10,071 bases of DNA, taken from NCBI GenBank assembly GCA_964583985.1, contig CAZOYD010000061.1, positions 11,631 through 21,701 on the forward strand, written 5' to 3'. This DNA comes from an uncultured archaeon (GTDB lineage Archaea > Asgardarchaeota > Lokiarchaeia > Sigyniarchaeales > SOKP01). Both the position numbers and the translations under genes were made by a program. Positions 1-10,071 of the stretch are shown piece by piece (the stretch's first letter is position 1; the number at the start of each line of letters is the position of its first letter). A model generated the notes under the pieces. That model was given only the letters and a program-made list of their open reading frames with translations. It was not told the DNA's origin and ran no database searches.

Positions 1-3000
1 TTCTTTAATCTTCAACTCATTTTCACGTTCTTTTATCAATATTTCTTTTTTCCTAAGTTTCTCTTGTTCAACATTATTTTGACTTGTTATTTGGTTTTGA
101 AATTCAAATTCTTCTCTTTCCATTTCGATTTTTTTATGCAATTCTTGTTGCTTTTTTATAAGAGCATTTTGTTTCTTCGATTGGATTTCAATGATTGAAG
201 ATCTTATAAGCTTTAATTCCTCAATCCACTGTATTTCTGCAAAAATTTCTTCAATCTGAAGATATATATCAATGGCATCATCAAACTTTCCTTGCTCAAT
301 TAATTCATTAGCAGTATCCATTAATTTGAATGCTTTTTCCTTGCGTTGTTCTCTAAATTGGAATTCTTCTTTCTGTTTTCTAATTGCAATCTCCTTAGCT
401 CTCAATTCCTTCTTTTCCTGCTCTAGTTGTTGAAATAATGTATTTTGAAATTCAATCTCTTCTTTTTCGTGTTTAATTTTTGCTTCTTCTAATTTTTGGT
501 TTGAAATTTGTTGTTGCTTCTTTCTAAGTAGAAAATCTGAAATTGATTGCTTAATCAATGGTAATTCATCATTCCACCCTATTATCTTAAAAATCTCTTC
601 TACTTTCTGATAATCAACAATACCACCATCAAAATCACCAATCTTTGCTTTAATTTGTGCTTTATCTATGAAAGAAAAAGCTAGCTTTCGTTGTTCCTCT
701 AATTCTTTTGAGATAGCCTCCTTTTTTGATAATGATATGGCCTTTTCATTTAATCTTTCTCTTTCTTTTCGTATTTGCAAGGATTGTTGCTTTTGGAATA
801 AATATTCTTCCCTTTCTTTTTCTAATTGATGTTCTATTGCTTTTTGCTTTCTAAGTTCTTCTTGGGATTGTTTTTCACGTATTGCTAACCTTGTTTCTTT
901 TATTAAATCGGTAGGGAATTGTATTTCATTTAAAATAAGTTCTGCTTTTCTATACATTTCAAGTACTTCAGCATAATTACCTTTACTAACAAGTTTTTCT
1001 GCCTTTTCCAATATATCAAATGCTTCTTCTTTTTTCTGTTTCAAATAGTTCTTTCTTTCCTCTTCCTGTTTAACTTGAATCTGCTTCAATCGTATCCTTT
1101 TTGCTTCATCTTGCATTATTGTTTGAATCTTCTCTTGAAATATTCTATTTTCTTGTTCTTGTTTTAAGTTTTCCTCCAATTCTTTTTGTTTTAGCAATTC
1201 ATCCTCTCTTTTCTTTGCTTGGATTTTATGGATCATCACTTCTACGATATCGGTTGGAAAATCAATTTCACTTAAAATGAGCCCTGCTTGCCGATAAGTT
1301 TGCATTGATAAATCATATTCACCTTTATTCAATAATTCTCCCGCATTATCTAATAAATCAAATGCTTTAACGCGTTGCAATTCCATTCTCACTTTAGCCT
1401 CTTCTTGTTTTTGCACTTCTATTTGTTTTAGTTGTAATCGATTTTGTTCGCGTTCCATTTGTTCCTTGATACTCTTATTGAAAAGCTCTTCTTCTCTCAT
1501 TCCTTCTTGAATTAATTTTTCTTGTCTAGCTTTTTCGTATTCTTTCTCTGCTTTGCGAGAATAAATGGATTCCAAAGTTTCTTTTAATAATTTTAAATAT
1601 CCTCCCGTCCATCCAATTTTTTCTAAGATACTGATGGATTCTACATAATTGGATACGGCGTCTTCATATTTTTCTTGTTTTATCAAGTCATCAGCAGTTT
1701 CTATTAATTTTAATGCATTTTCTTGCTTTTTCAGATTTTCTGCACTGAGTACTTTTTTCTTCTCTAATTCTTCCATTTCTTTCTGAATTTTGATTTTTTC
1801 AACTTCTCTCTGACGTTTAACTTGATCTATAAAGCGCTTATATGTAGTTTCCCGTTTGATACCTTCCTCAACGGTTTTTTGTTTCCATGCTTCTCTCTCG
1901 GCTTTTTTAGATCTTATCTCATTTATAGCTTGATTTATCAATGGTAGTTCTTCCTTCCATTGGATTTGGGCAAATATTTTTGCTACTTCATGATATAAAT
2001 CTATAGCCTCATCATACTTAGCCTGTGAAATCAGATCTTGCGCCTTATTAATCAAAGTAAAAGCTTCATTTTTCCGTGATTCACGATGTTCCAACTCTTT
2101 TTCATACTCTCGAAAGATAAGATCTTGTTTTTTCAACTCTTCTTGTTGCATTCTAATTTGATCAACTAATTGAATTTGAAATTCTCTCTCACTTTGCTCT
2201 TTTAAAAGTCTATTTCTCAGTTCTCTTTCCTTCTTTTCTTGTACATTACGTTTTTTTTGTTCAATTTCTAATATCGAATTCTGGATTAATTCAATTTCGT
2301 CATACCATTGAATGTCCGCAAAAATATTTACTATAGATTTATATATATCACTGGCAGAATCAAAATCCCCTTCCATTAGTTGAACCTGTGCTTCATCCAT
2401 GAGCTGAAATGCCTCCTCTTTTCGCTTTTCTCGATATTCTAATTCGTTTGCTCTTTCTCTCATTTTGATGTCTTGTTGTTTCAACTTCATGCGTTCAATT
2501 TCTAATTGTTGCGATATTTTTTCCTGAAATTCTTGTTCTTTTTGAAGACGAATTAAAGATTTTTCTCTTTCTTCTTGAATAAGTCTTGCTTTTTCTTTCT
2601 TTTTCATTTCAAGTTCTTTAATTGAATTTTCAATGAGAGGTAATTCATCAGTCCAATGGATTTCAGCGAAAATGTTACTTGCATTTGTATAAGCAATGAT
2701 AGCTTTATCTAAATCCCCTTCTCTAATGTATTTTTGCGCTTTTTCTAATATTACAAACGCATCATTTTTCCTTTCTTCTCGGATTTTTAGCTCTTCATTC
2801 TTACTCAACATTACAATTTCTTGCTTTTTTATCTTCACTCTTTCACGATCTAATAGCTCAGAAATTTGTTGTTGAAAAACTAAATGACTTTCTTTCTTCT
2901 CATCTTGTCTTCTGCGTTCTTCATATTCTACTTTTAATTGCTGTTCCTTTAATATATTTACATTATCAATCGTTGTTTTGATGATATTCTTATAAGATTC

Positions 3001-4310
3001 CCATTCACTCCCCAAATTTTCAAGAAAATCTAAAGCTTGTTTGTATTTTAGAATTCCTTGATCAAAATCCCTTTTATTTTGCAATATATCATCAGCATCT
3101 TCAAGGATTTTTAGGAATTCTTGTTCTTGAAGTTCTTCTTTTCTCCTTTTGCCTTCATATCTTAAACGGCGTTCTTCCAATTCCTTATGGGTTCGTTCAA
3201 TGTCTTTACCCTCCTTGGATGTTAAAGTCTTTTGAATCTCATCTATTTTTTCTTCTCTTTTTTTCTTTTGACTTTCGACAGATTTTTCTAATTCTTTTCT
3301 ATTCTCAATATCTTTAATGAAATTCTTGATAGGCTGAATATAGGAATCCCAATCAATTAATTTAAACATTTCAATGGCTTGTTGATATTTTTCAATCGCC
3401 TTATCATAACTTTTTTCTCGTTCCATCCTTTTTCCAATGTCAATAAGAGTAAAAGCATCTGATTGGATTTGCTCTTCATTTAATTTTGCAGCTTCAAGTT
3501 TTTTAGCTGAATATTCATATGCTTGTTCTTTTTTTATAGCTCTATCATCAGCATCATCTTTCACTTTAGTAGATTTAGACTTTTGATATGTATCGAGCGT
3601 TGCTTTATCTTGCTTTAGTTTTTCAACAATTGTTTGTAATTTAATGGTTTGCTCTTGCCACCCAATTGAATTTAGAAGCTCAATTGCATTCTGATAGCTT
3701 AAAATCGCCTCATTATATTTTCTATCTTTTTCATAGAATTTTGCATTATCAATAAAAGCAAACGCATCATTTTGGATTTGTTCTTCTTTCTCTTTTGCGT
3801 ACTTAAACTTGATCAGTTCCTCAGCTTTAGCATCGCCCTTTTTCTGACCAAATACTCCCACAACTTGAGGTTGTGAAGTTTTAGGTATACTTTGAACTTG
3901 TTGATCCTTTAATTTTACTGACAATGCTTGAAGCTTACTCCTTAAATTATCTAATTGTGTATCAGACCAGCCCGCTTGAAAAAGTAAATTGATAGCGGAG
4001 TTATATTGCTCTATAGCATTATTATATTGACCATTCTTTTCAAATTTATTTGCAGCATCCATTAAGGAAAATGCTTGATCTTGGAGACTCTCTAATTGAA
4101 CTTTTAATTCTGCTTGTTGCATTAAACGGTCATTTTTAAGACTCTCTTTTAATCGCTCAACTCGTTCATATATGTCATTAATGCGAAGAGACATATAGCC
4201 ACTTTGTTTCAATAACTCAGCAGCACTTAAATAATTCTCAATCGCATTGTTAAAATCTCCACTTTCTTCATAAAGCTGTGCGGCATCTAAAATCCTTATG
4301 ACCTCTTGAG
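1..4310 (-). repeat. 13 degenerate protein-level repeats, period 76, then 103, then about 116 aa
   Basis: Consensus AFxL(I/M)(D/E)xAxxxxxxGx(Y/F)DxAIxxYxxAxxI(F/L)xxIx(W/F). Anchor aromatic codons start at 4195(Y), 3967, 3658, 3349, 3001, 2653, 2305, 1957, 1609 (all W), 1258(F), 916(F), 574(W) and 226(W). Spacings are 228, 309, 309, 348, 348, 348, 348, 348, 351, 342, 342 and 348 nt. Confidence 0.92.
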
Positions 4311-4332
4311 CAATACTTTCATTTTTTTCCAT
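1..4332 (-). CDS. Giant tandem-repeat helical protein (MIT/TPR-like helical heads plus charged helical linkers), >=1444 aa, C-terminus beyond the window
   Basis: Translated by hand. ATG at 4332 (MEKNESIAQEVIRILDAAQLYEESGDFNNAIENYLSAAELLKQSGY...) and no in-frame stop down to position 1 (...KEILIKERENELKIKE). An in-frame TGA at 4339-4341 bounds it upstream. It is probably absent from the ORF track because it has no stop in the window. E/K/Q/R/I/L-rich, with no signal peptide or TM segment seen. Confidence 0.95.
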   Translation of the reverse strand, partial: MEKNESIAQEVIRILDAAQLYEESGDFNNAIENYLSAAELLKQSGYMSLRINDIYERVERLKESLKNDRLMQQAELKVQLESLQDQAFSLMDAANKFEKNGQYNNAIEQYNSAINLLFQAGWSDTQLDNLRSKLQALSVKLKDQQVQSIPKTSQPQVVGVFGQKKGDAKAEELIKFKYAKEKEEQIQNDAFAFIDNAKFYEKDRKYNEAILSYQNAIELLNSIGWQEQTIKLQTIVEKLKQDKATLDTYQKSKSTKVKDDADDRAIKKEQAYEYSAKKLEAAKLNEEQIQSDAFTLIDIGKRMEREKSYDKAIEKYQQAIEMFKLIDWDSYIQPIKNFIKDIENRKELEKSVESQKKKREEKIDEIQKTLTSKEGKDIERTHKELEERRLRYEGKRRKEELQEQEFLKILEDADDILQNKRDFDQGILKYKQALDFLENLGSEWESYKNIIKTTIDNVNILKEQQLKVEYEERRRQDEKKESHLVFQQQISELLDRERVKIKKQEIVMLSKNEELKIREERKNDAFVILEKAQKYIREGDLDKAIIAYTNASNIFAEIHWTDELPLIENSIKELEMKKKEKARLIQEEREKSLIRLQKEQEFQEKISQQLEIERMKLKQQDIKMRERANELEYREKRKEEAFQLMDEAQVQLMEGDFDSASDIYKSIVNIFADIQWYDEIELIQNSILEIEQKKRNVQEKKERELRNRLLKEQSEREFQIQLVDQIRMQQEELKKQDLIFREYEKELEHRESRKNEAFTLINKAQDLISQAKYDEAIDLYHEVAKIFAQIQWKEELPLINQAINEIRSKKAEREAWKQKTVEEGIKRETTYKRFIDQVKRQREVEKIKIQKEMEELEKKKVLSAENLKKQENALKLIETADDLIKQEKYEDAVSNYVESISILEKIGWTGGYLKLLKETLESIYSRKAEKEYEKARQEKLIQEGMREEELFNKSIKEQMEREQNRLQLKQIEVQKQEEAKVRMELQRVKAFDLLDNAGELLNKGEYDLSMQTYRQAGLILSEIDFPTDIVEVMIHKIQAKKREDELLKQKELEENLKQEQENRIFQEKIQTIMQDEAKRIRLKQIQVKQEEERKNYLKQKKEEAFDILEKAEKLVSKGNYAEVLEMYRKAELILNEIQFPTDLIKETRLAIREKQSQEELRKQKAIEHQLEKEREEYLFQKQQSLQIRKERERLNEKAISLSKKEAISKELEEQRKLAFSFIDKAQIKAKIGDFDGGIVDYQKVEEIFKIIGWNDELPLIKQSISDFLLRKKQQQISNQKLEEAKIKHEKEEIEFQNTLFQQLEQEKKELRAKEIAIRKQKEEFQFREQRKEKAFKLMDTANELIEQGKFDDAIDIYLQIEEIFAEIQWIEELKLIRSSIIEIQSKKQNALIKKQQELHKKIEMEREEFEFQNQITSQNNVEQEKLRKKEILIKERENELKIKE

Positions 4333-4553
4333 ATACTCTCAACTCATCAAACAAATCCATTATATTAGAAAGAAGTTGATTTTAAAAAAATAATCACTAA
4401 TTACAATAAATTAAGCGATTCTTTAATTAAATTTTTTATATTGCACGAATTATTAGTAATAAAAAGATTAAGTAAATGGGGATTTACTCTCTAACATTGC
4501 CATAGCTGAAAATAATGACAAATTATTTAAAAACAAAAGATCATAATTAAACG
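4333..4553. promoter_or_regulatory. Divergent AT-rich promoter region with candidate archaeal TATA boxes
   Basis: TTTAAAAA at 4526-4533 lies 28 nt upstream of the 4554 ATG, consistent with a leaderless transcript. Minus-strand TTTTAAAA at about 4387-4380 lies about 50 nt upstream of the 4332 ATG. AT richness makes individual box calls weak. Confidence 0.45.
4471..4488. promoter_or_regulatory. Perfect inverted repeat AGTAAAT-GGGG-ATTTACT, candidate transcription-factor operator
   Basis: 7-bp perfect arms with a 4-nt spacer, located between the divergent genes and about 40 nt upstream of the candidate TATA box of the ASKHA gene. Confidence 0.3.
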
Positions 4554-6515
4554 ATGACAACCAATCACAACAATATCGTTATTGATTTTGAACCAATATC
4601 ACGAAGAATTTATTATTCCGATAGTAAAACTATTTATCATGCATTGACCAAGGCTGGTATTCGAATTAAATCTATTTGTGGAGGAAAAGGAACTTGCGGG
4701 AAATGTAAACTCTTAATACAAAAAGGGATGGACCTTTTTAATGTTCCTACTAATGCAGAAATAGAAAATCTTTCAAAAAGAGAAATACAGCAAGGATGGA
4801 GATTAGCTTGTCAAGTCATGCTTGATTCAAAAAAGATTGAACGGTTAAATAATCCGCAAGATCAGGATGCACGTATTTTTTTACCTGACGATTTATTGGT
4901 TGAAGATTTTAAAATCTTAACATCTGGAGTCGATAAAGGCGTTCAATTAAATCCTAACGTGATAAAATTAACAGTTCTTCCAGAAAAACCATCATTAGCT
5001 AAACCAATTCCTGATTTTGAAAGAATTCTAAAGGCTTTACCTCCTGATAAATTAAAAACAAGAAGCAATCTTGACATTGAATATAACATCTTAAAAAATC
5101 TTCCGGATCTGATACGAAATCAAGAAGATGAACTTACCCTTACCATTTTAAACCAAAAAAATATAATCGATTGCGAACCGGGAAATACACTTGAGAAGAA
5201 TTTTGGAATTGCATTTGATATCGGAACAACCACGATTGTAGGTTATCTAATGAATCTTAATGACGGTAAAATATATGCCGTATCTTCTCTTTTAAATCCT
5301 CAAACAGCTTATGGCGAGGATGTCATTACAAGGATTACTTATATCAAGGAGAATGAAGATGGACTAACTCAACTCAATACAGCAGTAATAGATGCTCTCA
5401 ACATTATCATAGATAAAACCTGCAAGAATGCAAAGATTGAAAAATCGAACATCTATGAAATTTCCATTGTTGGCAATTCGGTCATGCATCACATCTTTTT
5501 AGGCATTACTCCAATTTACATAGGTTTAAGTCCATATGTTCCAGCGATACAACGAAACCTGAATTACACATCTCAAAATTTGGGATTAAAGACTTCTAAG
5601 CAAGCTAATGTTTATGTTCTCCCCGTGATTGCCGGGTTTGTCGGAGCGGATACAGTGGGTGTTATCTTATCCTCTCAAATTGAAAAAGAGTCCGAATTAA
5701 CACTTGCAATTGATATTGGAACTAATGGAGAAATTGTCATTGGGAATAAAGACGTACTAGCAACCGCATCATGTGCGGCGGGATCTGCTTTAGAAGGCGC
5801 ACACATCAAACATGGCATGCGGGCAGCAGCAGGGGCCATTGATACAATCAGAATCGACCCAAAAGATTTCTCGGTTGATTATACAACCATTCAAGATAAA
5901 AAACCAATGGGTATTTGTGGATCTGGACTGATAGATGTTGTAGCAGAATTATTAAAAGCAAGAGTTCTGACTCGTAGCGGTAATTTTAATAAAGAATTGG
6001 TCGGAAACGGAAGGGTAATTAAAATGGGAAATACGATCGAATTTGTCATTGCCGAAAAAGACGAAACATCAATAGGAAAACAGATCACCCTCTCTCAACA
6101 CGATATACGAGAATTACAAATGGCAAAAGGAGCTTTTTATTCAGGCACGCGATTAATTTTATCCTACTTGGATCGCACAAGAAAAAAAAAGCATTCCATT
6201 CAACAAATATACTTGGCTGGTGCGTTTGGTAATTACATTAGCAAGGCGAATGCGAAATTTATTGGAATGATACCTGATATATCTGACGAAAACATATTTC
6301 AAATTGGTAATGCTGCTGGAATGGGAGCTCAACACTGTTTGATTAATAAAAGTCTTAGGCAAAAAGCTCAAGACCTATTAAAATCAATCGAGTATGTAGA
6401 AATCGCCGTGGAGAAAGATTTTCAACAAGAATACGCTAAAGCTATGTATTTTCCTCATTTCAATCTTGATTATTTTCCTTCATTAAGAGAATATGACCAC
6501 ATCCCAAAGCGATGA
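4554..6515 (+). CDS. ASKHA-domain ATPase with N-terminal 2Fe-2S ferredoxin (DUF4445; RACo/AcsV-type ATP-dependent reductive activator of corrinoid proteins)
   Basis: Plant-type 2Fe-2S motif CGGKGTCGKC...RLAC. ASKHA/RACo motifs DIGTTT, NPQxxYGEDVITRI, GNSVMHH, GFVGAD, DIGTNGE, AAGSALEG, GICGSG, DIRELQMAKGA, LAGAFG and GNAAGMGA. The 653-aa length is typical of the family. Confidence 0.93.
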   Translation: MTTNHNNIVIDFEPISRRIYYSDSKTIYHALTKAGIRIKSICGGKGTCGKCKLLIQKGMDLFNVPTNAEIENLSKREIQQGWRLACQVMLDSKKIERLNNPQDQDARIFLPDDLLVEDFKILTSGVDKGVQLNPNVIKLTVLPEKPSLAKPIPDFERILKALPPDKLKTRSNLDIEYNILKNLPDLIRNQEDELTLTILNQKNIIDCEPGNTLEKNFGIAFDIGTTTIVGYLMNLNDGKIYAVSSLLNPQTAYGEDVITRITYIKENEDGLTQLNTAVIDALNIIIDKTCKNAKIEKSNIYEISIVGNSVMHHIFLGITPIYIGLSPYVPAIQRNLNYTSQNLGLKTSKQANVYVLPVIAGFVGADTVGVILSSQIEKESELTLAIDIGTNGEIVIGNKDVLATASCAAGSALEGAHIKHGMRAAAGAIDTIRIDPKDFSVDYTTIQDKKPMGICGSGLIDVVAELLKARVLTRSGNFNKELVGNGRVIKMGNTIEFVIAEKDETSIGKQITLSQHDIRELQMAKGAFYSGTRLILSYLDRTRKKKHSIQQIYLAGAFGNYISKANAKFIGMIPDISDENIFQIGNAAGMGAQHCLINKSLRQKAQDLLKSIEYVEIAVEKDFQQEYAKAMYFPHFNLDYFPSLREYDHIPKR

Positions 6516-7393: not shown

Positions 7394-8836
7394 TTATTTA
7401 GAAGTTTCAGAGATGCTGTCTAAATTCTCGTCCAAAGTCTTACATAAATATTTATGGACTATAAGGATTGCATCTTTTATGTTTTCATTATGAATCACGA
7501 GTGATAGGTTTAATTCTTCAGTGCTTTGAGACATTGCTATGACGGGGATTTTTTTCTCATCAAGAGCATTAAAAATCATTGCTTTTGTCTTGTTTTCTAA
7601 TATCTTCGCACCAGTAATGTTCAAGATTGCAACCATTTCGTGAGTAATTTTAAAAAATTCAGAAAAATATCCCGCTTTTTCCAATGCGTCTAAAGCTTTT
7701 TTGGAATCTTCTTTTTTCACAATAAAGGCTGTGCTAACTTCTGAGGCACTTTGTGCGACAAATGATACGCTTATATTATTTTTGCTCATTACTTTAAAGA
7801 TTTTTGCAAGAACTCCAGGGACATCTACTAAGCTTCCAGAAGACACGGTTATTATTGAGGAATTTTCTTCGCAAGAAATTCCCTTAATCTGTTCTCTATC
7901 AGATAGTTCCGAAATTCTCGTGTAGTTGAATTCTTCAAGTGGATTCTGAAAATTTCGTATCTCAAGAGGTAAATTCTTCTTTTCGATTGCTTCCAAGCAT
8001 TTTGGGTGAATAATTTTCGCACCAAAATTGGCGATGTGCATTGCCTCATTATAATCCAAGTTTCGAATAAGGGAGGATTTTGGATCATATTTTGGATTGA
8101 TTGTCAATAATCCATCTACATCTTTCCATAAAATAATTTTTATATCTTTATCTAATCCCACTTCATGAATGGAATGAGCTAGAATTGTTGCCGTGTAATC
8201 AGAACCCCCTCTTCCTAAAGTCGTAGTATATCCAATTTTATTCCTTCCGATGAACCCATTAATACAAATAATCGTATTTTTCAAGGGATTTTCGAGAACT
8301 GGAAGGATTAGATTTTGAATTCGTATATTAGTCAAACTATAGAGCGGATAAGCATTACTAAATTCGTCATTGGTGATGATGATCTTGTTTGCCGGAACGT
8401 ACACAGAATCAAACCCATGGCTTAATAAAAATTGATGTAATATATAAGTAGATAAAATCTCTCCAAAACTCAATACATAATCTTGGTAGTAAGGTTCTAA
8501 ACCAAATTCTCGAATATCCGCAAATATATCTTCCAATTCACTCAAACACTTATCAATATATTCCCTTGCATTATTATAATGATCCGAATCCTCTTCGAAA
8601 ATTTGCTCTATGATATCAAAGTGTTTCTTTTCTATTATAGCCATGTTATTATCAAGAATCTTACTATTCGAAGCATTTTGAGCAGTTGCTAATAATAAAT
8701 CCGTTATTCCATTAAGAGCCGAAGCGACATATACCTTCTTTGAATTAGCATAAAGCTCAGAAATCTTTAAAATCTTGTGAAACGCGTTTTGATCAACAAG
8801 ACAACTGCCACCAAATTTCATTATTACAATGGTCAT
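7394..8836 (-). CDS. lysC: Aspartate kinase with two C-terminal ACT domains
   Basis: N-terminal MKFGGS, then VASALNGITDLL, DYVLSFGEILS, TTTLGRGGSDYTA, WKDVDG and FGAKIIHP. ACT-like segments PGVLAKIFKVMSKNNISV and AMIFNALDEKKIPVIAMSQ. No fused homoserine dehydrogenase. Confidence 0.93.
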   Translation of the reverse strand: MTIVIMKFGGSCLVDQNAFHKILKISELYANSKKVYVASALNGITDLLLATAQNASNSKILDNNMAIIEKKHFDIIEQIFEEDSDHYNNAREYIDKCLSELEDIFADIREFGLEPYYQDYVLSFGEILSTYILHQFLLSHGFDSVYVPANKIIITNDEFSNAYPLYSLTNIRIQNLILPVLENPLKNTIICINGFIGRNKIGYTTTLGRGGSDYTATILAHSIHEVGLDKDIKIILWKDVDGLLTINPKYDPKSSLIRNLDYNEAMHIANFGAKIIHPKCLEAIEKKNLPLEIRNFQNPLEEFNYTRISELSDREQIKGISCEENSSIITVSSGSLVDVPGVLAKIFKVMSKNNISVSFVAQSASEVSTAFIVKKEDSKKALDALEKAGYFSEFFKITHEMVAILNITGAKILENKTKAMIFNALDEKKIPVIAMSQSTEELNLSLVIHNENIKDAILIVHKYLCKTLDENLDSISETSK

Positions 8837-9001: not shown

Positions 9002-10071
9002 TTATTTCAAAATATCGGTTAATTCCTTGATTTGAGCATCGAGTTTTTGCTTAATGAGATCTAATTTCCCTTTCTTTTCTTCTAACTCATCAGCAGTGAT
9101 TTCTCCTGTTAATTCTTTCATATCGAAATCTAACGATATTTTTGATATGCTTGATTTCTTGATTTTTAAATCTAGTATCGCTTTTTCAATATTTGCTTTT
9201 TGTTGTGGTGTCATTTGCGAGTCCTTTAAAGGAATATCGCTTGATTCCGTCACGTCAGCAGCTATTTCTTTTTCAACAAGTTCTATTTTTGGAGGAGTTT
9301 TGATTTTTGATGTAGAAGTATTTAATTGAGTAGGATCAATTGGAGTTGGAACAGCATCCTTTTCAACTTGCAAATTAGGAGTAACTTGGACGGATGGAGG
9401 TTTAGTAGGAGTTTGAATGGAGGACGGGGGTTTTACGTTTGATTCAACTAGCTTGACAGGTGACACGATTTTCGGAGGTAAATTATTCAAGGGATTTGAG
9501 ACCTGAGCAAATGGAGAGGTTTTTAATTTATTTCTTGCATCTTTTGGTACCATAGAAATAGTCTTGGGTCTTTGTTTAATCATAAAGTCTTCTGGATTCA
9601 AATCTAAACCACTCTCACTGAGATCTATATTTGGTTGGATAATTGATTCTTGTTCATTCGCTAATTTTTCAGGTGCTTTTTCTGGCATACTAGGCGGAAC
9701 GGTTATTTTTGAAGGTGAAGGGGGGAGAATCGGCTTTTTAAGTTGCTCTGGTTGTTCTTCTTTAATAATTGGTTGCGGTTTCATTTGAGGTGTTTCTGAA
9801 GTGTTTACAACATTCGAATGTGGAGGAGAATTAGATGGAGGAGGGCTCAATGTAGCTTTCGGAGGAATATCTTTAATCGCGTCCTCTTCTTCAATAGCTC
9901 GTTCAACGTGTGTAAATAATGGTGAAGGGGTTGTTTTTGGGGTTTTTTCCATTGATGATGTCTTTTTTGTTGGCAAAGGTAATGGTGGGGGCTTTCTTTC
10001 TATAGATTTTGGAAGTGTTGTTGGTATTGGTTTTTCTTCTATAGGTGTTGTTGGTATTGGTTTTTCTTCTA
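9002..10071 (-). CDS. Hypothetical Pro/Ser/Thr/Lys-rich disordered protein with C-terminal coiled coil / SHOCT-like motif; N-terminus beyond the window (>=355 aa)
   Basis: The ORF-track start at 9976 (TTG) is probably internal, since the frame stays open to the window edge (...EEKPIPTTPIEEKPIPTTLPKSIERKPPPLPLPTKK...). C-terminus: IEKAILDLKIKKSSISKISLDFDMKELTGEITADELEEKKGKLDLIKQKLDAQIKELTDILK*. Confidence 0.85.
   Translation of the reverse strand, partial: EEKPIPTTPIEEKPIPTTLPKSIERKPPPLPLPTKKTSSMEKTPKTTPSPLFTHVERAIEEEDAIKDIPPKATLSPPPSNSPPHSNVVNTSETPQMKPQPIIKEEQPEQLKKPILPPSPSKITVPPSMPEKAPEKLANEQESIIQPNIDLSESGLDLNPEDFMIKQRPKTISMVPKDARNKLKTSPFAQVSNPLNNLPPKIVSPVKLVESNVKPPSSIQTPTKPPSVQVTPNLQVEKDAVPTPIDPTQLNTSTSKIKTPPKIELVEKEIAADVTESSDIPLKDSQMTPQQKANIEKAILDLKIKKSSISKISLDFDMKELTGEITADELEEKKGKLDLIKQKLDAQIKELTDILK
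10015..10071. repeat. Perfect 30-bp tandem repeat (at least 1.9 copies) encoding PIEEKPIPTT on the minus strand
   Basis: GTGTTGTTGGTATTGGTTTTTCTTCTATAG at 10015-10044 is repeated without mismatch or spacer from 10045 to the window end. Confidence 0.9.

Follow-up and report, generated by a model that had tools for sequence, protein, structure and literature searches.

Rods of the spectrin, α-actinin and plakin type are built from contiguous three-helix bundles, with a spectrin repeat measuring about 106 residues. Single α-helices of the ER/K type serve as spacers in myosin VI, myosin X and caldesmon, while nebulin and the CCDC39/40 proteins of the 96-nm axonemal repeat are molecular rulers. 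The MIT-type fold, in turn, is used by eukaryotes to read the tails of ESCRT-III proteins. Here, we describe a giant repeat gene of an uncultured Asgard archaeon (GTDB: Lokiarchaeia, Sigyniarchaeales, SOKP01) whose product is predicted to combine traits of all these systems. Its 5′ part lies in a stretch of 10,071 nucleotides of contig CAZOYD010000061.1 (C61:11631-21701, assembly GCA_964583985.1), which is referred to as the window. We consider it slightly better than an even bet that the gene product forms a single-chain segmented helical rod, that is, a long periodic docking scaffold or spacer with about 20 MIT/TPR-like bundles.

Positions 1-4332 of the window contain, on the minus strand, one stop-free frame of 1444 codons with an open 3′ end. 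The 4.3-kb frame noticed in a preliminary description of this DNA is thus real, runs from an ATG start (4332..1), and belongs, as had also been stated, to a protein of more than 1444 residues. A scaffold gap of 100 N (C61:11531-11630) directly precedes window base 1, and past this gap a frame on the same strand remains open for 788 more codons up to a stop (L001:9166-11529, minus strand). The 1444-residue fragment aligns without gaps and with 77% identity to residues 1-1444 of an orthologue of 2331 residues (P0003), and the 788-residue fragment (P0002) aligns, likewise ungapped, to the final 788 residues of the same protein with 76% identity. These gapless matches imply that the intact protein comprises about 2331 residues; the gap conceals about 99 of them, equivalent to one repeat unit. 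For the orthologue, the mass is 280 kDa and the isoelectric point near 9, and the 2232 assembled residues of our protein contain no cysteine and 13 prolines. A membrane-bound or secreted protein was ruled out, as there is no hydrophobic segment (highest 19-residue Kyte-Doolittle mean 1.21). Contig C61 carries two gaps of 100 N (11531-11630 and 4563-4662), the first of which lies inside the repeat array, where a duplicated block of six units (see below) probably broke the assembly.

We located the repeated heads with a hidden Markov model (HMM) built from the protein itself. Thirteen heads were found in the window, in agreement with the 13 or more helical heads initially proposed, and they start at residues 6, 82, 185, 288, 401, 520, 636, 752, 868, 985, 1099, 1213 and 1329. 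The intervals between them are 76, 103, 103, 113, 119, 116, 116, 116, 117, 114, 114 and 116 residues, and the six heads past the gap follow each other at 117, 114, 114, 114 and 119 residues. Together with one head hidden in the gap this amounts to 20, the same number as in the orthologues. The near-fixed period had therefore been recognized correctly, but its precision had been overstated: a spacing of exactly 348 nucleotides occurs in four of the last nine intervals in the window and not in six, the others lying within 113-119 residues. The units are only 20-41% identical to each other, and Tandem Repeats Finder detected no long-period DNA repeat in the array of the window. Hence, the array is old, and its constant period does not stem from a recent duplication. 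The segments between the heads are as rich in charged residues as first described, since the linker cores (50 residues in each of 13 units) consist to 61% of E, K, R and Q and contain no proline and two glycines among 650 residues. The two short N-terminal linkers differ from these core linkers, and that of unit 2 holds Pro, Gly, Ser and Thr. At the other end of the protein, the last head and the tail together span about 193 residues (P0002:657-788; L001:9166-9561, minus strand), a length conserved in 112 proteins, and the tip of the tail bears a conserved polybasic motif, 'AKDKEK..EIKKMLKE..KKKK(K)', which might constitute a membrane- or nucleic-acid-binding end.

To what extent the spacing is maintained became apparent from the homologues. 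A search of 5.8 billion proteins at E ≤ 0.001 yielded 137 matches, of which the best 120 were analyzed. These share 32-78% identity with the query, and the named records among them are all 'hypothetical' or 'tetratricopeptide repeat' proteins from metagenome-assembled genomes of Promethearchaeota. In about 120 homologues with identities of 35-77% the same series of intervals recurs position by position (76, variable, variable, 113, 118/119, 116, 116, 116, 117, 114, ..., 114, 114, 119). Over a stretch of four heads and 421 residues, 91 non-redundant sequences with 39-83% identity to the query align in exactly 421 columns with zero gaps at about 45% identity. By sequence comparison, the periodicity is far beyond chance. 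Intervals 2 and 3 vary between 89 and 120 residues in these homologues, which demonstrates that insertions and deletions do arise and have been purged solely from the core. Free variation in linker length, which would have spoken against a rod with evenly spaced nodes, is accordingly confined to two N-terminal linkers, and the earlier proposal of selection on length is borne out by unit lengths that are position-specific and free of indels among orthologues. At a given position, orthologues share a mean column identity of 62%, compared with only 39% for the units within the protein, so that the heads are non-equivalent.

The number of heads differs between homologues (classes of 10, 14, 17, 18, 20, 21 and 25), but it changes by whole blocks only. 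In the 20-head form, units 12-17 are copies of those numbered 6-11 in the 14-head form, units 7-10 are duplicated in the 18-head form, and the 10-head form is devoid of units 7-10. Forms of about 1645 and of about 2312-2357 residues both occur within the genus of the window at the same syntenic locus. The presence of both lengths among close species at one locus indicates that the length of the rod changes in quantised steps. The distance and phase of the modules thus appear to be under strong selection, of which the absence of indels and the quantised copy number are an unusually clear sign. Distant relatives, found with a profile of the unit, possess other fixed periods (127, about 120, 76-78 and 72 residues), and one has 17 intervals of 116-117 residues.

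We then asked which known domains the heads resemble. Scanned as a whole against Pfam, the protein matches MIT with 85.5 bits (E 2.7e-24, cut-off 30), a score that is summed over the heads, as well as TPR_1, TPR_2, TPR_11 and TPR_12, whereas no spectrin family is among the matches at E ≤ 0.1. When the heads were scanned singly, 8 of 19 matched MIT at E ≤ 0.01 (best 5.2e-7), more than matched any TPR family. The best single head reaches 28.6 bits and so stays under the cut-off of 30, while the real Vps4 of the genome scores 54 bits. A profile of the heads retrieves from the PDB sequences first the consensus-TPR designs, over a 22-residue 'GdYdeAIeyYqkA' stretch, and more weakly the MIT domains of VPS4A (50 residues) and Atg38 (32 residues) and an archaeal Vps4-like MIT domain. 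The 1444-residue fragment, used as a phmmer query against the same sequences, matches a designed TPR alone (E 1.4e-3). Each unit does contain a helix-turn-helix motif of 34 residues with a signature of the G8/Y11/A20/Y24/A27 type, as in a TPR, but there is one motif per unit of 113-119 residues instead of three or more adjacent, stacked motifs forming a superhelix.

An AlphaFold2 model of a single head (head 6) consists of three helices, with a predicted local distance difference test score (pLDDT) of 86.4 and a predicted template-modelling score (pTM) of 0.69. Foldseek returned no match to this model at E < 1e-3, and MIT domains occupy about 16 of its top 25 ranks. Superposition with VIA-align gave a Z of 10.6 for the Vps4 MIT domain (71 of 82 residues, root-mean-square deviation (rmsd) 1.5 Å) and for that of NRBF2, and a Z of 9.8 (rmsd 1.2-1.6 Å) for the katanin p60 N-domain, calpain-7 MIT and Sulfolobus Vps4 MIT. 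TPR fragments of LGN, Cpr7, CHIP and Sti1 reach 9.5-10.3, so that the shape of the bundle does not tell the two families apart. Because Z values below about 13 are common for helical bundles, we speak of an MIT/TPR-like three-helix bundle and not of a proven MIT domain. The safe statement from these models is that the heads are predicted to be such bundles, with MIT as the closest named family. The preliminary description did not recognize the protein as a member of a described family, which is correct in that a full-length match to a characterized family was not obtained, but the fold of its heads is recognizable.

To visualize the connection between heads, residues 515-935 (four heads) were modelled as a monomer by AlphaFold2 with the alignment of 91 sequences as input (mean pLDDT 81.7; pTM 0.31, a value to be expected of a chain that is elongated). 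Helices were predicted at model residues 2-24, 27-43, 50-140, 143-159, 163-255, 259-275, 279-345, 350-371, 375-392 and 397-420. Helices 50-140 and 163-255, of 91 and 93 residues (pLDDT 80-88), each unite helix 3 of one head with the linker and with helix 1 of the following head, which is the continuity that had been anticipated from the sequence. The sole helix break, at model residues 346-349 before head 9, has low pLDDT and may be a hinge. A compact solenoid or globular fold is not seen in the four-head model, and Foldseek found nothing for it in the PDB at E < 1e-3, including no TPR solenoid. A shape search of the ESM-Atlas gave merely matches with a template-modelling (TM) score ≤ 0.33 to bacterial TPR and unrelated proteins, and a feature search of the Atlas gave scores ≤ 0.85 to clusters that are TPR or without name, inside the stated chance range of the tool. 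Taking 91 residues at 0.15 nm each minus the overlap within the bundles, we infer that each unit advances the rod by about 10-11 nm and that the rod measures about 0.2 micrometre in all.

In the reading that we favour, the gene product would be a cytoplasmic, all-α protein of about 2331 residues with about 20 MIT/TPR-like bundles. From head 4 on, helix 3, a charged segment of about 45-55 residues and the next helix 1 would form one helix of about 91-93 residues, and the bundles would follow each other at 113-119 residues along a segmented rod. Shorter linkers, two of which are variable, contain Pro or Gly and are presumably flexible, would join the first three or four bundles. Such a rod would most likely present non-equivalent bundles, putatively for docking, at a fixed distance and with a fixed rotational phase, and evolution would tune its length by gain or loss of whole blocks of units. 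Several points weigh against this reading. All structural statements derive from monomer AlphaFold2 models, with a geometry calculated from helix lengths and a four-head pTM of 0.31, and AlphaFold2 readily renders charged segments as single helices. The Z near 10 of the head falls in the range that VIA-align calls common for helical bundles. Moreover, the linkers depart from classic ER/K helices: simple counts give only 0.15 opposite-charge i/i+4 pairs per residue, and hydrophobic residues are conserved in a stripe. In reality, the rod may form a pair with a second chain or with a partner.

This last point deserves closer consideration. In the alignment of 91 sequences, the naked part of each long helix shows hydrophobic positions that are conserved, together with an (E)FQ motif that hardly varies. 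An aromatic residue stands exactly 40 residues before the Phe of the AF motif of the next head in 13 of 13 checkable core units (12 Phe, 1 Tyr), and, counted from the linker Phe, hydrophobic residues are conserved at positions that include 0, +4, +8, +15, +22, +29 and +40. Helical-wheel arithmetic at 100 degrees per residue places the linker hydrophobics on one face, which continues into the core face of helix 1, and the hydrophobic periodicity of the long helices is 3.50-3.54 residues. Linkers that act as plain spacers, as implied at the outset, are not supported by this stripe and the fixed aromatic, and the stripe may be lined by a further chain, by an adjacent rod or by the helix of a partner. 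One could consequently envisage a self-assembling filament or paired rod in which stripe and aromatic mediate dimerization or staggered lateral packing. The period would then be a packing register, which a staggered assembly would need to be constant, and instead of a single-chain scaffold we would be dealing with a cytoskeleton-like polymer. We regard this as unlikely, though it is the strongest of the alternatives. There is only one conserved hydrophobic residue per heptad (+8, +15, +22, +29), and the places that would correspond to d hold polar or charged residues, such as the nearly invariant Glu-Arg pair at +11/+12, while a canonical two-stranded coiled coil is hydrophobic at both a and d. 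A parallel homodimer, furthermore, could do without fixed unit lengths. An ER/K single α-helix, on the other hand, has dense i/i+4 Glu-Lys/Arg pairs and no hydrophobic seam, unlike the linkers despite their 61% E/K/R/Q. With a single heptad position occupied and few i/i+4 pairs, the linker matches neither the canonical coiled coil nor the ER/K single helix of the textbooks.

The protein could also be a multivalent binder of ESCRT-III, with heads that are true MIT domains, bind the MIM tails of the two ESCRT-III paralogues and allow the rod to template, bundle or measure polymers. MIT is the best Pfam family for the whole protein as well as for single heads, it dominates the Foldseek and VIA-align lists with matches that cover whole domains, and the genome encodes Vps4 and two genes of the Snf7 family (ESCRT-III). 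We nevertheless rate this proposal somewhat below the paired rod. No head reaches the MIT cut-off, TPR fragments perform equally well in the structural comparison, and consensus TPR designs top the profile search. The residues common to all heads are core or TPR-signature positions and leave no evident common groove. A genetic linkage to ESCRT was ruled out, as Vps4 and the ESCRT-III genes lie on contigs C10 and C2, and a comprehensive ESCRT survey makes no mention of such a protein (PMC10936438). A slightly fainter possibility still is a role as molecular ruler or template for a periodic polymer in the cells of Loki-type Asgard archaea, such as ESCRT-III or actin-like filaments. The lattice of the polymer would be matched by the advance of about 10-11 nm and the residue-exact phase, and the measured length would be tuned by species in quantised steps of 4-6 units. 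If this were true, it would be a prokaryotic counterpart of the nebulin or CCDC39/40 rulers made from MIT-like modules.

With regard to its distribution, a pattern scan of 185,579 species genomes yielded 103 loci, and the 80 that are listed all stem from Promethearchaeota or 'uncultured archaeon' records, some of them labelled by their submitters as Hermod-, Hod- or Odinarchaeota. A profile search at E ≤ 1e-10 of 399 genomes of the phylum gave matches in 119 of 133 genomes of the GTDB family of the window and in 9 of 19 genomes from three sister families of the same order, but no match in any of the roughly 250 remaining genomes of the phylum. Two single-contig genomes (4.4 and 6.0 Mb) from a sister family yielded no more than a match at E 1e-12 or none at all. 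An Asgard-wide family, as originally envisaged, is thus too broad a description, as the strong matches fall within one GTDB family of the order of the window. A second canonical paralogue in the genome was ruled out, the array being present on C61 alone. A distant relative is encoded on C32 (L094:2544-7418, plus strand), namely an all-helical protein of 1624 residues with five head-like modules spaced 92, 766, 238 and 116 residues apart, which has a weak MIT match and is without informative Pfam domain.

The genes surrounding the giant gene are conserved in the order aspartokinase, Ras-like GTPase, RACo-like gene (divergent), giant gene, E1-like ThiF gene (same strand), HAD hydrolase and E2. 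The E1-like gene is found on the same strand no more than 2.5 kb downstream in all 64 loci with enough flank, and RACo upstream in 59 of 63 related loci. In many relatives E1 follows at 100-300 nt, and an E2 of the UQ_con family lies 2-6 kb beyond. This arrangement invites the idea of a ubiquitin-pathway scaffold acting together with its neighbours, the eukaryote-like E1 next to it and the E2 close by, for instance by arraying enzymes or substrates, which we consider improbable and place behind the proposals above. The loci all belong to one close clade in which RACo, Ras and aspartokinase are equally syntenic, so that the order may simply be inherited, and here, as in many other genomes, a convergent gene for an S8 peptidase lies between the giant gene and E1. 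As the genomes are closely related and the same degree of synteny extends to unrelated genes, we treat the link to E1 as a lead only. As a family-wide rule, the adjacency was ruled out by three distant relatives with other periods, which have no E1 at their loci; two of them adjoin UPF0182 genes. The relatives P0131 and P0154 (L095 and L096), whose periods are strictly kept at 116 residues (with 17 intervals of 116-117) or at 127 residues, adjoin a large gene for a UPF0182 membrane protein instead of an E1, which points to a larger superfamily of rods with heads and helices at fixed periods.

Least credible of all is an ordinary TPR protein folding into a compact superhelix, as the names of some records, the Pfam TPR matches and the 22-residue similarity to consensus designs would have it, since each unit consists of one TPR-like hairpin, a third helix and then a charged linker of about 55-60 residues, adjacent 34-residue repeats are absent, and AlphaFold2 and Foldseek gave no solenoid; anatomy and model together exclude a compact TPR solenoid. 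The coordinates of all features are compiled in Table 1.

Table 1. Features of the giant repeat gene and its neighbourhood. Positions are those of the window unless prefixed with L001, which denotes the locus that holds the frame past the gap.
Feature	Residues	Position	Strand	Remarks
Giant repeat gene, N-terminal 1444 codons		1..4332	-	ATG at 4332-4330; cut at window base 1 by scaffold gap
Head 1, MIT/TPR-like three-helix bundle	6-66	4135..4317	-	76 residues to head 2, kept in most homologues (102 intervals of 76)
Head 2, most MIT-like by sequence	82-143	3904..4089	-	Best Pfam MIT stretch 85-133; best single-head score
Linker after head 2, Pro/Gly/Ser-containing				Variable length; interval 103-120 among orthologues
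Head 3	185-246	3595..3780	-	Second variable-length linker next
Head 4	288-349	3286..3471	-	Fixed-length part begins here, interval 113
Head 5, weakest	401-464	2941..3132	-	17.6 bits to head HMM; interval 119
Head 6	520-581	2590..2775	-	Modelled singly, three helices
Linker 6, charged, Pro-free, conserved EFQ motif	582-635	2428..2589	-	Middle of predicted 91-residue helix
Head 7	636-697	2242..2427	-	Head HMM, AlphaFold2
Head 8	752-813	1894..2079	-	Sole predicted helix break of modelled stretch in following linker
Head 9, 'IGW..YLKLL' type	868-930	1543..1731	-	117-residue unit
Head 10, 'FPT' type	985-1044	1201..1380	-	114-residue unit
Head 11, 'FPT' type	1099-1158	859..1038	-	114-residue unit
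Head 12, first of duplicated six-unit block	1213-1274	511..696	-	Closest paralogous unit in orthologue is unit 6
Head 13, second of duplicated block	1329-1390	163..348	-	Closest to unit 7; head 14 hidden in gap
Intergenic region, 221 bp, AT-rich, divergent, giant gene vs RACo-like gene		4333..4553	.	TATA-like runs 30-60 nt upstream of ATG, by eye
RACo-like protein, 653 aa		4554-6515	+	Fer2 + RACo linker/middle/ASKHA C-terminal; divergent from giant gene
Ras/Rab-type small GTPase, 175 aa		6784-7311	+	Pfam Ras, E 5.6e-49; syntenic in most related loci
Aspartokinase-like gene		7394-8836	-	AA_kinase + ACT (Pfam)
355-aa frame, open at window end		9002-10069	-	No significant Pfam match
E1-like ThiF-family protein, 527 aa		L001:5985-7568	-	Downstream of giant gene, same strand
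S8 subtilase/peptidase, convergent		L001:7648-9156	+	Separates giant gene and E1; stop 6 nt from giant gene's stop

Among the neighbours, the small GTPase of the Ras/Rab type is a typical eukaryote-like signature protein of Asgard archaea.

A full-text literature search on Asgard proteins returned no description of a protein of this kind, and the giant Asgard genes reported in PMC8813620 were rejected as candidates, as they encode unrelated aloposon proteins of more than 3000 residues. While the modules represent known folds, the architecture, with isolated MIT-like bundles, continuous helices, a residue-exact period and a copy number that changes block-wise, matches no described family that we found. 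Asgard archaea are being searched for precursors of eukaryotic cell architecture, and here one lineage of the Loki type has a conserved 280-kDa protein whose design would join MIT/TPR-like modules with a spectrin-like continuity of helices and a ruler-like exact period. If its partners were found, the protein could reveal how membrane-remodelling or cytoskeletal machinery is organized over 0.1-0.25 micrometre. On the practical side, repeats of this type break assemblies, as the gap next to the window shows, and annotation pipelines call the gene 'hypothetical' or 'TPR protein'.

When compared to the systems introduced at the beginning, the single-chain rod that we favour resembles each of them in part. 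With the MIT domains (PF04212: Vps4/CdvC, katanin p60 N-domain, NRBF2/Atg38, calpain-7, USP8, spartin and MITD1) the heads share an asymmetric three-helix bundle of about 70-80 residues and a common A..l...A....G.Y..A...Y..A signature. Known MIT domains, however, occur once or twice per protein and usually beside an enzyme or AAA ATPase, whereas there are about 20 heads here without a catalytic domain, and their helices 1 and 3 are predicted to extend into helices of 91-93 residues. Helices 1 and 2 of each head match the helix-turn-helix signature of TPRs (TPR_1/TPR_2 and the consensus designs), but instead of stacking as tandem 34-residue repeats into a superhelix, the motifs stand isolated, about 116 residues apart. 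Spectrin, α-actinin and plakin rods likewise consist of periodic three-helix bundles in which the last helix runs into the first helix of the next repeat, as predicted for our protein, yet there is no sequence match, and since helix 2 has just 17 residues, about 45-55 residues of each long helix would remain uncovered. Finally, long, charged, Pro-free helices of fixed length and a strict period are shared with the ER/K spacers and molecular rulers; relative to the former, the linkers have fewer i/i+4 salt-bridge pairs and an additional conserved hydrophobic stripe, and among the latter, chains of the axonemal 96-nm repeat appear among the weak structural matches of the protein.

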